In this document: piece after piece, positions 278 through 58,866 of the stretch
How the letters are laid out: the number at the start of each line of letters is the position of its first letter
Numbering within the stretch: the first letter of the stretch is position 1
Assembly: GCA_934646835.1 (NCBI GenBank)
Contig: CAKUES010000005.1
Span: 12,860 to 76,859, forward strand
DNA from: an uncultured Coriobacteriales bacterium
Lineage (GTDB): Bacteria > Actinomycetota > Coriobacteriia > Coriobacteriales > QAMH01
Length of the DNA: 64,000 nt
Direction of reading: 5' to 3'
Position numbers and translations under genes: made by a program
Notes under the pieces: generated by a model
What the model saw: the letters and a program-made list of their open reading frames with translations, nothing else
Told to the model about the DNA's origin: nothing
The model's database searches: none

Positions 278-408
278 GCGGGAAACGGGGTACGCTGCAA
301 TCAGAACCACGTTTATCAAAAGATGCGGGTCTCCCCCTCTTCATGGCAAACCATCGCTTGCGACAACTCACACTCAACAGAGCCGCTATGTCTCGCCGGA
401 GGTCTGCC

Positions 409-555
409 ATCAAAAAGTGCACGAAGTGTTAAGGGTTGATGCAAGTTGTCGAGTAGCCACAAATCTGCAACGCTGTGACCTGCGGTTTTGCAAGCGTCAA
501 CTGCCGGCTACTCGCCTGCTCGCCGAAACCCTTAACACTTCGTGCACTTTTTGAT
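409..555. repeat. Foldback element family F, copy 1: 27-bp perfect inverted repeats around a 93-bp core
   Basis: ATCAAAAAGTGCACGAAGTGTTAAGGG (409-435) is the exact reverse complement of 529-555. The core is 436-528. A second copy lies at 1703-1849 with the core inverted. Confidence 0.9.
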
Positions 556-597
556 TCCAACGCGCGCTTGCGAGACGCCAACCCACCGCAACACGAT

Positions 598-619
598 GGC
601 GCCGACTTCGTCTGGCGCC
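598..619 (-). repeat. REP-like hairpin, class B (degenerate tail)
   Basis: GGCGCCGACTTCGTCTGGCGCC followed by CACA instead of TACG. Same hairpin as 8 other copies. Confidence 0.7.
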
Positions 620-817
620 CACATGGGGTTTCGCGCCCAAAGGCGCTAACGCGAAACTCGCCGCGAGCAGCAGCAAGGCAAGCAAATCATGCCACCCGAG
701 CCATTGTTGGCACCCTGCTTTTTAGCCACAAATACGTTTAAGGAAAGAAATGAACAGGGCCGCAAGTCGATGACCTGCGGCCCCTGCATATAAGTGATTT
801 CCATCTGACGGGAGCGA

Positions 818-1027
818 CTACTCATCTTCCTCATAGCGAATGATGTCTCCAGGCTGACAATCAAGCTCTTTGCAAATGGCCTCGAGCGTGGAGAACCTGA
901 TCGCCTTCACCTTCCCCGCTTTGAGGTTCGACATGTTGACTCGGCTGATGCCGACCTTCTTTGCAAGATCGGTGACCGTGATCTTTTTCATCCTCATCAA
1001 CTCATCTAGATGAACAGTGATTGCCAT
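818..1027 (-). CDS. XRE/YozG-type helix-turn-helix transcriptional regulator
   Basis: MAITVHLDELMRMKKITVTDLAKKVGISRVNMSNLKAGKVKAIRFSTLEAICKELDCQPGDII matches the short YozG-like HTH architecture. Start chosen at the internal Met (1027) of ORF 818..1060. Sits directly downstream of a DUF2975-like membrane gene, the usual pairing. Confidence 0.8.
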   Translation of the reverse strand: MAITVHLDELMRMKKITVTDLAKKVGISRVNMSNLKAGKVKAIRFSTLEAICKELDCQPGDIIRYEEDE

Positions 1028-1056
1028 ATGCGAGTCATCCCGCCCCGTGCCGTCCG

Positions 1057-1437
1057 TCAAACAATATATCTACCGACCAAAGCCAGAATCAGAGAGCAAA
1101 GATAACTGCAAATCAGCACGGAAACAAGGAGTCCCAGACCGGCAATCATAGGAAAAACTCTAAACACATATGCAAAGCCAGCACATACCGCCAAACCCAG
1201 CGCAAGGGCAATCGCATTCCCGCGCTTAGCCTGAAGCGCCCTCGAAGCCAACCATATAGAGGAAAGCGCCACAAGCAGAACAACAGCTATGCGCCACGCA
1301 CCAAAGAGGCTCATGCTGATCTCGAACCTCTGATACATAACCAGCAGATAGGGGTCAGCGAAATAAGCTGCGATCGACAGGCAAGGTATCACCAGCACCG
1401 TCAAACAATGGGACAGAGCCCCCTTCAGTTTTTCCAT
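1057..1437 (-). CDS. DUF2975-like multi-pass membrane protein, partner of the YozG-type HTH
   Basis: Four hydrophobic segments in the translation. Start at MEKLKGAL (1437), preceded by AAGGAGAG. Gene-pair context supports the call. Confidence 0.65.
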   Translation of the reverse strand: MEKLKGALSHCLTVLVIPCLSIAAYFADPYLLVMYQRFEISMSLFGAWRIAVVLLVALSSIWLASRALQAKRGNAIALALGLAVCAGFAYVFRVFPMIAGLGLLVSVLICSYLCSLILALVGRYIV

Positions 1438-1702
1438 GATGCTCTCCTTTCCCTTGGCAGCTAATCTCCAAACGTCATAAAGCAACATCTTTGCAAAACC
1501 AATGCATCATCACTGGCGCAAGTTAAGAATACTATGGAGTGTAATGATTGTCGATACATTATGTGCTTTATTCCATTAATTATTGAGCTGCGGTTGTAAC
1601 CTGGAAGATGTTAGCTGGCTCGAGTGAACTGTCACGCGACAACTGACCCTCAAACACGAAGCCCGACACGGCAAAGGTAATGTGTCTCGCCGGGGGTCTG
1701 CC

Positions 1703-1849
1703 ATCAAAAAGTACACGAAGTGTTAAGGGTTTCGGCGAACAGACGAGTAGACGGCGATTGAAGCTCGCAAAACCGCAGGTCACAGCGTTGCGACCTTGTG
1801 ACTACTCGGTATTCTGCTTTAACCCTTAACACTTCGTGCACTTTTTGAT
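1703..1849. repeat. Foldback element family F, copy 2 (core inverted relative to copy 1)
   Basis: Inverted repeats at 1703-1729 and 1823-1849 (one mismatch, GTACAC vs GTGCAC). The 93-bp core 1730-1822 is about 80 percent identical to the reverse complement of core 436-528, while the outer flanks stay collinear. Confidence 0.9.
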
Positions 1850-1891
1850 TCCGGCGCGCGCTTGCGAGCCGCCAGTTCTCTACAACCTGAT

Positions 1892-5134: not shown

Positions 5135-5252
5135 CTAGGGAGACACTGATTAATGCGAGGTTTATGGGGAGGGACAGGGTCCCTCCCCTACGTGACCAGC
5201 GGTTTTGCCAATCGTACGCAGCGGGCACTTGCTTTAATCAGCGTTTCCCTAG
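5135..5252 (+). mobile_element. MITE-like element (about 118 bp), copy 1, carrying a class A REP hairpin
   Basis: CTAGGGAGACACTGATTAATGCGAGG...GGGGAGGGACAGGGTCCCTCCCCTACG...GCTTTAATCAGCGTTTCCCTAG. Has terminal inverted repeats and CTAG at both ends. Four copies in the window. Confidence 0.85.
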
Positions 5253-5274: not shown

Positions 5275-5551
5275 GCGAACTGAGTGGGATCTACCGATTA
5301 CCGTGTCGAACTGGGTGATTTGCGCCTGACTCCTGCGCGAACTGGGTAGTTTTGAGTTTTGTTTTCACGAACTGGGTGGTTTTGGCAGAGCATCTCGATC
5401 TGGGCGAAAACTCGCAAGCCCCTGACCTGCGGCTTTACAGAGCAAGCTCTGAGCTTTCACTCCAAAGGACGAATCAAACCACCCAGTTCGCGAAATTAAC
5501 TTTGCAAACCACCCAGTTCGTCGCAGTTTTCGAGCACAATCGCCCAGTTCC
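5275..5551. repeat. Foldback repeat family G (CGAACTGGGTGGTT motif array)
   Basis: Four direct copies of CGAACTG(G/A)GT.. (5275-5382) face three inverted copies AACCACCCAGTTCG (5477-5551). A related element lies at 35081-35299. Confidence 0.8.
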
Positions 5552-8507: not shown

Positions 8508-8623
8508 TGACATCGTGACACACATTGTGCCAGTGACATTGTGTATCACGGACAAAACGCTCGGGCATATCGCATACCTAAACCAGTGACACACAATGTC
8601 ACTGGCACAATGTGTGTCACGAC
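8508..8623. repeat. Foldback element family D: inverted pair of 35-bp units between the activation-domain gene and metH
   Basis: GTGACACACATTGTGCCAGTGACATTGTGTATCAC (8515-8549) and GTGACACACAATGTCACTGGCACAATGTGTGTCAC (8586-8620) are reverse complements with one mismatch. Confidence 0.85.
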
Positions 8624-18057: not shown

Positions 18058-18256
18058 ATGATCCCCCTTCGCGTTTAGGGCACATGCCAACGGACCGCTT
18101 GCGTGGGCTGCATTGCGTTAGGCGGCAAGACAGCACGGCACGCTGCAGCATCTACCCGATGTACAGACGACTCGAAGTATACGCCCCTGACAAGGATAAA
18201 TCCCGCAGAGAATAGAGTTTGTAAGATTGAATGCGAGCAGATAGCTCAAACTCGCT

Positions 18257-18355
18257 GTGCAATGTGTGCCAGTGACAAAGCGACCACGCCTTGAAGAGCC
18301 GATGACACCGGAACCCTTCATGGCGTGGTCGCTTTGTCACTGGCACACATTGCAC
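18257..18355. repeat. Foldback element family D, long form
   Basis: GTGCAATGTGTGCCAGTGACAAAGCGACCACGCC (18257-18290) is the perfect reverse complement of 18322-18355. Confidence 0.85.
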
Positions 18356-18697
18356 ACATTGCACTCCGGTGTACTTTATCTTGCTTGTGAATAATCCGCT
18401 CACGCGCGGCAAGCGGAAACCTCCTTGAATCGTGCGCCGCGCTCCGTATACTGCATAGCCGAGAGACGACCACTGTGGTCATTCTGCTATCTCTCGCGGC
18501 TCCGCAAGCCGGGGCAATTCTTCTGCAAAGGGTGCTGGTCACCCTCTCATATCGAGCCCACCGGCCCCTTCTGCAACGGGTTTGGGCATTACTGCACAAT
18601 GCCATACCGCTCACTCACATCAACTGCCTGCGCTTTGGTGCAGTCTCGCGCTGGCCTTCGCTCGCCCAGACGGCGACGCGAAAGAAAGGAATTTGCA

Positions 18698-25778: not shown

Positions 25779-25889
25779 CAGCGTGACACACTTTGTGCCA
25801 GTGACATTGTGTGTCATGCCATAGAATCGCAGGATTCCCGAGTCTTCTGCATGAAACACAATGTCACTGGCACAAAGTGTGTCACGCTG
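25779..25889. repeat. Foldback element family D: 41-bp inverted repeats with a 29-bp spacer
   Basis: CAGCGTGACACACTTTGTGCCAGTGACATTGTGTGTCATGC (25779-25819) against 25849-25889, one mismatch. Confidence 0.9.
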
Positions 25890-35080: not shown

Positions 35081-35299
35081 CCGGAACTGGGCGGTTCGCG
35101 CTCGAAGACGCGACGATCTGGGTGGTTTAAGGCTTTTATTTCGTGAACTGGGTGGTTTTGGCGATGCTCGGCGAGGACGCCTCCGAGTGACGGCGCTCTG
35201 ACCTGCAGTTTTACAAATCGGATTCTGACGCATCGCTTCAACGTGCGAACCAGACCACCCAGATCGCGAAATAAAAGCCTTAAACCACCCAGATCGTCG
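35081..35299. repeat. Foldback repeat family G with 33-bp perfect terminal inverted repeats
   Basis: CGACGATCTGGGTGGTTTAAGGCTTTTATTTCG (35111-35143) is the exact reverse complement of 35267-35299. Additional GAACTGGG.GGTT motifs occur at 35081 and 35142. Confidence 0.88.
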
Positions 35300-35310
35300 C
35301 GTCAGCCGAC

Positions 35311-35394
35311 CGGTCAACACTCTAGTCAGGCTGATTTGTTGACCATGCCAGGCCTGGCATGGTCAACAAATCAGCCTGACTAGAGTGTTGACCG
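35311..35394. repeat. Perfect 84-bp palindrome (42 + 42 bp, no loop)
   Basis: CGGTCAACACTCTAGTCAGGCTGATTTGTTGACCATGCCAGG followed directly by its exact reverse complement. Confidence 0.95.
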
Positions 35395-38430: not shown

Positions 38431-38549
38431 CCAGGGAAATGCTGATTAATGCGAGGCTTATGGGGAGGGACTTCGGTCCCTCCCCTACGTAACCAGCGGT
38501 TTTGCTAATCGTATGCGGAAAGCATCTCCCTTAATGAGCGTTTCCCTAG
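38431..38549 (+). mobile_element. MITE-like element, copy 2 (loop variant TTCG); abuts and supplies the stop codon of the adjacent gene
   Basis: CCAGGGAAATGCTGATTAATGCGAGG...GGGGAGGGACTTCGGTCCCTCCCCTACG...CTTAATGAGCGTTTCCCTAG. The terminal CTAG contains the TAG stop of CDS 38546..40498. Confidence 0.85.
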
Positions 38550-49718: not shown

Positions 49719-49836
49719 CTAGAGAAACGCTGATTAAAGCAAGTGCCCGCTGCGTACGATTGGCAAAACCGCTGGTCACGTAGGGGAGGGACCCTGTCCC
49801 TCCCCATAAACCTTGCATTAATCACTGTTTCCCTAG
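49719..49836 (-). mobile_element. MITE-like element, copy 3 (inverted orientation)
   Basis: CTAGAGAAACGCTGATTAAAGC...CGTAGGGGAGGGACCCTGTCCCTCCCC...GCATTAATCACTGTTTCCCTAG. Confidence 0.85.
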
Positions 49837-58747: not shown

Positions 58748-58866
58748 CTAGGGAAACGCCGAGCAATGCGAGGTTTATGGGGAGGGACAGGGTCCCTCCC
58801 CTACGTAACCAGCGGTTTTGCTAATTGCAGATATTGGGTATCTGCTTTAACCGGCGTTTCCCCATG
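58748..58866 (+). mobile_element. MITE-like element, copy 4 (right end degenerate)
   Basis: CTAGGGAAACGCCGAGCAATGCGAGG...GGGGAGGGACAGGGTCCCTCCCCTACG...CTTTAACCGGCGTTTCCCCATG. Confidence 0.8.

Follow-up and report, generated by a model that had tools for sequence, protein, structure and literature searches.

Why does a short segment of DNA stand between the same arms and the same flanks at two neighbouring sites of one chromosome, yet point in opposite directions at the two? The question is raised by a 64,000-nt stretch from an uncultured Coriobacteriales bacterium (contig CAKUES010000005.1; hereafter the window), in which two copies of a 147-nt foldback element, here called F, lie on either side of a small operon encoding a helix-turn-helix (HTH) regulator and a membrane protein. 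In each copy two inverted 27-nt arms enclose a 93-nt core, and a class B repetitive extragenic palindromic (REP) unit, hereafter REP-B, follows. A first interpretation made from the letters alone (the sequence-only reading) had noticed the inverted core and named three processes that could lie behind it: inverton-like recombination between the arms, resolution of a cruciform or hairpin, and hairpin-primed flip/flop copying. We show here that the core flip is ancient and has stayed fixed, and that the REP-like repeat carrying it does not work as a switch. We further consider it probable, though well short of certain, that a composite carrying F was duplicated and that the spacer between the arms of one copy then underwent a single ancient inversion in situ, its orientation being neutral.

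An inverted core between conserved arms and flanks

The arm ATCAAAAAGTGCACGAAGTGTTAAGGG occurs four times in the window and nowhere else in it, where no occurrence is expected by chance. The four occurrences delimit two F elements, copy 1 at 409-555 and copy 2 at 1703-1849, which lie in direct orientation with their starts 1294 nt apart, in agreement with the spacing of about 1.29 kb reported by the sequence-only reading. Their parts are as follows.

389-408, + strand: left flank of copy 1, TGTCTCGCCGGAGGTCTGCC, private to copies 1 and 2
409-435, + strand: left arm of copy 1, an exact arm match at the base of the hairpin
436-528, + strand: core of copy 1, 93 nt, asymmetric, with the central motif GCAACGCTGTGACCTGCGGTTTTGCAAG on the + strand
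529-555, - strand: right arm of copy 1, an exact reverse-complement arm match
556-579, + strand: linker of copy 1, 24 nt from F to REP-B, absent from the REP-B unit at other REP-B copies
580-672, + strand: class B REP unit on the side of copy 1, with the palindromic core GGCGCCGACTTCGTCTGGCGCC at 598-619
1683-1702, + strand: left flank of copy 2, 19/20 identical to 389-408
1703-1729, + strand: left arm of copy 2, with one mismatch (GTACAC)
1730-1822, - strand: core of copy 2, 93 nt, with the central motif on the - strand, inverted relative to copy 1
1823-1849, - strand: right arm of copy 2, an exact match
1850-1873, + strand: linker of copy 2, 24 nt, 21/24 identical to 556-579
1874-1966, + strand: class B REP unit on the side of copy 2, with its core at 1892-1913, 68% identical to the REP-B of copy 1

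The arms of the two copies agree at 53 of 54 positions, the spacers are 93 and 93 nt long, and the left flanks and right linkers are both in direct orientation, with the REP-B palindromic cores beyond the linkers. In contrast, the core at 436-528 matches the reverse complement of 1730-1822 at about 81% identity (76/94; 80% in a family-wide comparison) and its forward sequence at 54-57%. Each core is 59-60% identical to its own reverse complement, and neither is therefore self-symmetric. With an nhmmer profile of the family, copy 1 scores 166.5 bits on the + strand and 85.3 on the - strand, and copy 2 scores 160.7 bits on the - strand and 73.9 on the + strand, a gap between strands that makes the orientation of both cores unambiguous. 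Thus, what the sequence-only reading had described held up: shared flanks, arms and trailing class B REP around an inverted core whose orientation can be assigned despite the palindromic arms.

The resemblance between the two sites has sharp limits. The REP-B of copy 1 is 68% identical to that of copy 2 and 77% identical to a third REP-B at 2165-2263; as the pair is thus not set apart by its REP-B units, the paralogy specific to it covers only the 20-nt flank, F and the 24-nt linker. Neither in the window nor in 378 kb of retrieved loci did the 20-nt flank occur without an adjacent F arm, and the 24-nt linker likewise never occurred without F. Divergence is alike in cores (18 mismatches in 94 positions) and flanks (4 in 44; Fisher p = 0.21), whereas the arms are significantly better conserved than the core (Fisher p = 0.0017).

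Folded as DNA, F forms a hairpin of -43 to -52 kcal/mol on either strand (z = -9 to -12; copy 1, -47.5 kcal/mol, z = -10.6), with a stem that, its imperfect part included, reaches about 50 nt per arm and has A5 and T5 on the two sides of its base. Within the arms, positions 8-13, a GTGCAC hexamer (416-421, 543-548, 1710-1715 and 1837-1842 in the window, and likewise in L002, L003, L010, L011, L027 and L033 among the retrieved loci), are a substitution hotspot, with the variants GTACAC, GTGAAC, ACACAC and CACCAC in or near the hexamer and GTGGAC on both arms of L010, while the inner 15 nt, ACGAAGTGTTAAGGG, are almost invariant. Restriction avoidance was rejected as the cause of the hotspot: the window contains 12 GTGCAC sites against 10.6 expected, and the hexamer is thus not depleted there. 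The core flip also makes the two F elements, each 147 nt long, inverted repeats of one another with 86% complementarity that enclose the whole operon; an inversion of the 1.15-kb segment between them is possible in principle and is seen in no assembly.

Orientation across strains and the case for a switch

Orthologous loci were recovered by exact-match anchors in the HTH protein, the response regulator and the membrane-protein variants. Counted at the level of consensus assemblies, the upstream F copy has the orientation of the window in 16/16 independent gut-metagenome assemblies and the downstream copy in 14/14, so that the alternative orientation appears in none of 30 locus-assemblies (95% upper bound, 9.5% of assemblies). 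The assemblies represent at least three strain lineages, down to about 93% nucleotide identity, and partial contigs of the locus agree as well, including one from the lineage at about 93% identity. No pair of orthologues differs in core state; all orthologues of each locus share one state, even in a lineage whose arm carries 3-4 uncompensated substitutions. The sequence-only reading had itself held that a single fixed orientation throughout would refute active switching and leave an ancient flip standing. A single orientation at each locus is what all assemblies contain, and by that measure active switching is refuted while the ancient flip remains.

Other evidence points the same way. An active inverton would require that a recombinase encoded elsewhere flips the core and that the two loci happen by chance to be in opposite states. 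F does resemble invertons in that a short intergenic segment in the neighbourhood of an operon stands between perfect 27-nt inverted repeats, that both states are present in the family, and that copy 2 lies upstream of the operon. By the inverton criteria in PMC11892184, PMC11602134 and bioRxiv 10.1101/2023.03.11.532203, however, it differs from them in showing no heterogeneity among assemblies, no invertase in the window and no sigma-70-like site in the segment, and in having its two states at two separate loci. No invertase, tyrosine recombinase or transposase was found among the window genes by Pfam scans of 30 open reading frames (ORFs) supported by G+C content at third codon positions (GC3), together with the gene tables of orthologous contigs; the search for a nearby recombinase that the sequence-only reading had proposed thus yielded none in the 64-kb window. 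That reading had seen no convincing -35/-10 pair in the core, and a consensus scan for this one promoter type likewise found no sigma-70-like site inside F. The candidate TTTGCA-N16-TACTCG is conserved but has a poor -10, and was rejected. The operon's own candidate promoters lie outside F. Moreover, the two cores differ by 19% and so are not interconverting copies of one sequence, and their states have been kept across lineages about 7% apart, one with an arm decayed by 3-4 mismatches. The fixed orientation, the lack of a recombinase in the window and of a sigma-70-like site in the core, and the divergence of the cores together make an active inverton very unlikely. Still less credible, to the point of being negligible, is hairpin-primed flip/flop copying of the kind known from parvoviral or other hairpin termini, or an artefact of assembling palindromes. 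The arms and core do form a long hairpin of the same formal geometry, but a parvovirus-type hairpin sits at the end of a linear replicon, whereas F is internal to a core chromosomal region with SMC, Ffh, FtsY and RNase III, and more than 16 independent assemblies from different assemblers (SPAdes NODE, MEGAHIT k141 and other scaffolds) contain the same structure. From the original list of mechanisms, arm recombination and template-switch copying across a hairpin survive as the likeliest for a one-off event; active flip/flop does not. Both orientations of an inverted repeat within one genome are not, then, evidence of phase variation, and inverton predictors that use sequence only could mis-call such relics.

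The short metagenome contigs L027, L008 and L026, all of this locus, end inside F copies, which indicates that F breaks assemblies.

The F family and the origin of the inversion

F is known at seven loci, namely copies 1 and 2, L010, L011, L013, L033 and L034. The five beyond the window were found by DNA scans and by using spurious ORFs that read through F as protein queries. Of these queries, frame 1 led to P0001 and frame 2 to nothing. P0005 and P0007-P0009 came from an exhaustive search by profile, which also returned a tandem-repeat translation (P0006) and a leucine-rich-repeat protein (P0010), both rejected as F matches. A paired-arm scan of metagenomes contributed one new locus, and scans of viral contigs one copy (L011). 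L034 comes from the same sample and has the same coverage as an orthologue of the window locus, which makes it a third copy in the same organism. The window thus has two copies and the organism three or more, counted in the 64 kb plus about 30 kb of it that was read.

The sequence-only reading had suggested tabulating family copies by core orientation, and doing so shows that F is real beyond the window and occurs in both orientations relative to REP-B. The distance between the two is 41-43 nt in five of the seven loci: when the core is read in its own direction, copy 1, L011 and L013 have a REP-B on the + strand 43 nt downstream of F, and copy 2 and L033 have one on the - strand 41-42 nt upstream of it (41 nt in L033). 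At L010, where REP-B is missing, F stands 18 nt before the start codon of a TetR-like gene and shows a concerted change in both arms (GTGGAC/GTCCAC). In L011 (positions 1-146 of IMGVR_UViG_3300014955_000076), a 7.3-kb contig with a viral classification begins with F and then a REP-B-like unit; its neighbouring ORFs had no match in PHROGs, so that the viral assignment is without support. The arms are kept across all seven loci, most arm mutations being uncompensated, so that the copies resemble decaying relics. The cores are 91% identical between L010 and L011, 85% between copy 1 and L034, 80% between copies 1 and 2, and 76% between copy 2 and L034.

Searches for further members and for a mobile partner gave little. 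F had no match in Rfam at gathering and permissive thresholds, nor in BLAST searches of plasmids and phages. A scan of 185,579 species genomes with GTRCACGAAGTGTTAAGGG, a pattern strict at the variable GTGCAC, which variant arms escape, returned only a chance match in a gammaproteobacterial metagenome-assembled genome. By arm and core patterns, no autonomous element with F ends was found in species-representative genomes (where variant arms would again escape), JGI metagenomes, IMG/VR, plasmids or phages. The 20-mer GCTGTGACCTGCGGTTTTGC from the core does occur in intergenic regions of two unrelated groups of predicted phages in IMG/VR (L028-L031, and L032), with about 0.1 chance matches expected, and in one group forms GTGACC-N22-GGTCAC; these five phage matches lack F arms and were rejected as family members. 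F is thus a rare, undescribed foldback family of the REP/ERIC (enterobacterial repetitive intergenic consensus) kind, within the known class of intergenic palindromic mosaic repeats.

Relatives of F share its centre. In the 1.3-kb metagenome contig L033, four foldbacks of the F superfamily are arrayed one after another (42-195, 290-442, 551-700 and 929-1075), three of them diverged subfamily members and one F, with a REP-B between the third and fourth, and the central motif CTGACC(A/T)GCGGTTTTG runs in the same direction in all four. A nested inversion at CGAGTAG/CTACTCG in this array was considered and rejected, as the halves of the outer core do not swap cleanly. A sister family, F', is found in a different organism of 57% GC (L036, 4854-5001, between a chorismate-mutase gene and a RelA/SpoT-type gene; L035, 680-823); its arms are diverged (CAAAAAGTACGCGAAGTAGGCAG), while its left core and the apex CGAGTAGGCCAAAAATCGCAACGCTGTGACCTGCGGCTTTGCAA are nearly as in F. 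Across subfamilies, therefore, the centre is better conserved than the arms. A superfamily apex, CGAGTAG..AAATC.GCAACGCTGTGACCTGCGGyTTTGCAA, appears to be retained in F, in F', in the three diverged elements of L033 and across organisms, and perhaps in family W and in the GGGGAGGG family as well. Its 15-nt centre, GACCTGCGGTTTTGC, recurs with at most 2 mismatches in two other repeat families of the window, at 5194-5208, 5424-5438, 35200-35214, 38491-38505, 49763-49777 (- strand) and 58807-58821, against a chance expectation of about 0.12 matches at 2 mismatches and 0.006 at 1 mismatch. One of these families is a foldback of about 115 nt, CTAGGGAAAC..GGGGAGGGACAGGGTCCCTCCCCTACGT-GACCAGCGGTTTTGC-..GTTTCCCTAG, with four copies, and the other is family W. 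Different foldback families thus have an apical module in common.

How did the core come to be inverted? In the history that we favour, copies 1 and 2 would be paralogues of a short composite made up of the 20-nt flank, F, the 24-nt linker and REP-B, and the 93-nt spacer of one copy would have turned round once, before the present strain lineages split. The arms may have recombined with each other within one molecule, or replication may have switched template in two steps across the hairpin; either route would leave arms, length and flanks unchanged and the spacer reverse-complemented, after which the orientation would have been inherited unchanged and the flip tolerated. This signature is what the two copies display, with arms at 53/54, spacers of 93/93 nt, a reverse-complement core and direct flanks. 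The similar divergence of core and flanks, and flanks that never occur without F, fit a duplicated unit with a later single inversion, and the better conservation of the arms is consistent with arm homogenisation or an arm-based function. Inversion of a spacer or loop at inverted repeats by template switching is a recurrent mutational process, documented in bacterial rRNA hairpins and yeast genes among others (PMC8794818, PMC8604942), in which, as in F, perfect arms and spacer length are kept while the spacer is replaced by its reverse complement. At F the event is deduced from paralogues and not from an ancestor-descendant pair, and both the order, duplication before inversion, and the molecular mechanism are what we infer from them. 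Given the size of the spacer, a template switch is no more plausible here than recombination of the arms, whether homologous or illegitimate. The inversion could be caught at all because both private flanks survive in a paralogous pair.

Tolerance of the flip would be understandable if the conserved and plausibly functional parts of F, its arms, are symmetric. The stem with its A5 and T5 brackets resembles a bidirectional intrinsic terminator or an insulator hairpin, and F may act as a REP/ERIC-like terminator, insulator or 3'-end stabiliser independently of the orientation of its core. Its settings are varied: copy 1 stands where two genes converge and copy 2 separates tandem transcription units; L034 closely follows a gene, and L010 closely precedes one. 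Two orientation-dependent explanations were tried and rejected. Selection for an RNA from one strand is not apparent in 8 copies, where the strands differ in energy by anything from -14 to +12 kcal/mol, G·U versus A·C counts are mixed and no strand is consistently favoured. Core orientation relative to the nearest known gene (5 co-directional, 1 opposite, 1 ambiguous) does not track local transcription significantly and is not relied on. The one feature that a role independent of orientation leaves unexplained is the unusually strong conservation of the asymmetric apex across subfamilies.

Several observations weigh against a duplication followed by one inversion. The core of copy 1 is nearer to L034 than to copy 2, by about 5 positions, which one would not expect had copies 1 and 2 been the latest to arise by duplication. 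Both core orientations occur relative to REP-B at independent loci and at a constant distance, which insertion of a mobile element explains equally well. The spacers in documented template-switch inversions are mostly of 2-5 nt (about 4 nt in rRNA loops; PMC8604942, PMC8794818), whereas F has 93 nt between 27-nt arms. A minority orientation within a population is compatible with counts made on consensus assemblies. The terminator or insulator role is a deduction.

Some of these points suit a different history, in which F is a non-autonomous mobile foldback, past or present, of the type of miniature inverted-repeat transposable elements (MITEs) or REP doublets forming hairpins (REPINs), that inserts by REP-B-type modules either way round, so that copies 1 and 2 would be independent insertions into paralogous targets. 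We regard this main rival as a possibility to be taken seriously, although an unlikely one. It accounts for the spread of F over no fewer than seven unrelated loci, one organism alone having at least three, for the regular distance to REP-B with the core co-directional in three cases and opposite in two, for the closeness of copy 1 to L034, and for the concerted arm change in L010, which is what functional terminal repeats would show. It fits less well with the rest. F has the terminal inverted repeats of a MITE, but neither an autonomous partner in the searches described above nor a consistent target-site duplication, the only candidate being an ambiguous palindromic AT that is missing at L010, L033 and L034. 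There is no empty site, no flank without F and, in the window, no transposase or REP-associated tyrosine transposase (RAYT), the arm mutations are those of decaying relics, and a centre conserved better than the arms across subfamilies is the reverse of the typical MITE. The conserved apex could instead mean that F belongs to an undescribed superfamily of foldbacks of about 150 nt in high-GC gut bacteria, in which the apex and not the arms is conserved best. The apex would then point to a sequence-specific, orientation-dependent function, for instance as a site for protein binding, as a small RNA or as a signal for processing, with the orientation of the core either selected or flipped at a frequency too low to appear in consensus assemblies. 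This we think doubtful; what speaks for it is the retention of the apex across organisms and across subfamilies that differ in their arms. A duplicated composite with a single spacer inversion thus remains our preferred history.

Among known repeats, ERIC and Correia-type elements, imperfect palindromes of 127-155 nt in enterobacteria and Neisseria, are similar in size, and share with F the long imperfect palindrome, the intergenic location, the occurrence in either orientation to genes and a conserved central region. They belong to another phylum and have no sequence similarity to F, and the TA target duplications, promoter and integration host factor sites of Correia elements are not seen at F. 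Bacterial interspersed mosaic elements (BIMEs) are likewise intergenic mosaics of palindromic modules with regular spacing and differing relative orientations, but their REP units measure 20-40 nt against the 147 nt of F, whose copy number appears low and for which no RAYT was found in the window. In BIMEs, moreover, unit orientation is fixed for each type of linker, whereas F occurs both ways by the same linker in copies 1 and 2. REPINs share with F two inverted arms and a spacer that form one non-coding intergenic hairpin of about 100-150 nt (PMC3337134, PMC3116915). In contrast to REPINs, the arms of F are not clear REP palindromes, its centre is more conserved than its arms, no RAYT occurs in the 64 kb, and the at least three copies counted in 64 kb plus about 30 kb of the organism stand beside the hundreds per genome that are typical of REPINs.

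If the favoured history is true, F provides a clean natural case of spacer inversion on a long (93-nt) spacer in a bacterial repeat. The finding opens no new mechanism and makes no long-standing question testable; F and its relatives are an unannotated repeat family of an uncultured gut bacterium and matter mainly for assembly and annotation.

Neighbouring repeats, operon and chromosomal setting

Foldback and REP-like families crowd the intergenic regions of the window. REP-B (GGCGCCGACTTCGTCTGGCGCC plus about 70 nt) is present nine times, at 598, 1892, 2190, 5589, 34822, 35023 (- strand), 35529, 36763 and 36991. The module before it differs from unit to unit but always meets it at one boundary (CGCC..), in the manner of a BIME-like mosaic. 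Family W (5338-5520 and 35107-35303) has arms of repeated CGAACTGGGTGGTTT and cores of 93-97 nt, and gives a weak but in-register match to the F profile (E = 0.006). In its two copies the central motif has opposite orientations relative to a shared linker and REP-B (73% identical over about 120 nt), but the cores have diverged too far (56% versus 47%) to make the call of their orientation firm. Further palindromes and foldbacks of other families lie at 2605-2635 and 2767-2797, 35311-35394 (a perfect 84-nt palindrome), 25779-25889, 18256-18356 and 8513-8622, and several have GTGACA..TGTCAC arms in common. An attC-like interpretation of GTTAAGG/CCTTAAC was rejected by inspection, order and consensus being wrong.

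The operon between the two F copies comprises the following features.

756-784, - strand: hairpin resembling an intrinsic terminator, with a 13-bp stem of 9 G-C pairs followed by a T-rich tail, between the operon and copy 1
818-1060, - strand: gene for a Cro/C1-type HTH regulator of 80 amino acids (Pfam HTH_26, E = 6.9e-24)
1057-1488, - strand: ORF for a small membrane protein of 126-143 amino acids, species-restricted, with no family assignment
1526-1635, - strand: candidate sigma-70-type operon promoters, two 9/12 matches, between the operon start and copy 2

Copy 2 is upstream of the candidate promoters and copy 1 beyond the terminator, so that both stand outside the promoter-terminator unit. 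The sequence-only reading had seen in the operon a cassette bounded by composite repeats. We find instead that all strains carry it, with its own promoters and terminator between the repeats and with no mobility gene, and that 378 kb of retrieved sequence contain no strain without the operon, no empty site and no solo flank. Distant orthologues of the operon were no source of empty sites, as the membrane protein is species-restricted. The same reading had identified the two genes as an HTH regulator, which Pfam bears out, and a DUF2975 protein, which is unconfirmed: the membrane-protein ORF has no Pfam match even at E = 10, and among 5.8 billion proteins searched its only homologues are near-identical. 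Its gene is frameshifted in some strains and cut to 71 amino acids in several (L023-L026), and many assemblies have the HTH gene annotated at 59 amino acids in place of 80. The operon appears to be dispensable or in decay.

The F copies are located between a lysR-type and a response-regulator gene, in a window that is core chromosome of 62% GC with lysR, response-regulator, glnA, metH and transporter genes and those for SMC, ftsY, ffh, rnc (RNase III) and plsX, a gene content that may point to Coriobacteriia. Its proteins have exact matches in metagenome assemblies of the human gut alone (Hadza and other cohorts), with no isolate genome and no contig above 200 kb among them. In one strain only, an IS110-family transposase gene (DEDD_Tnp_IS110 and Transposase_20; L021, 18832-20046) lies about 5 kb past the lysR side.

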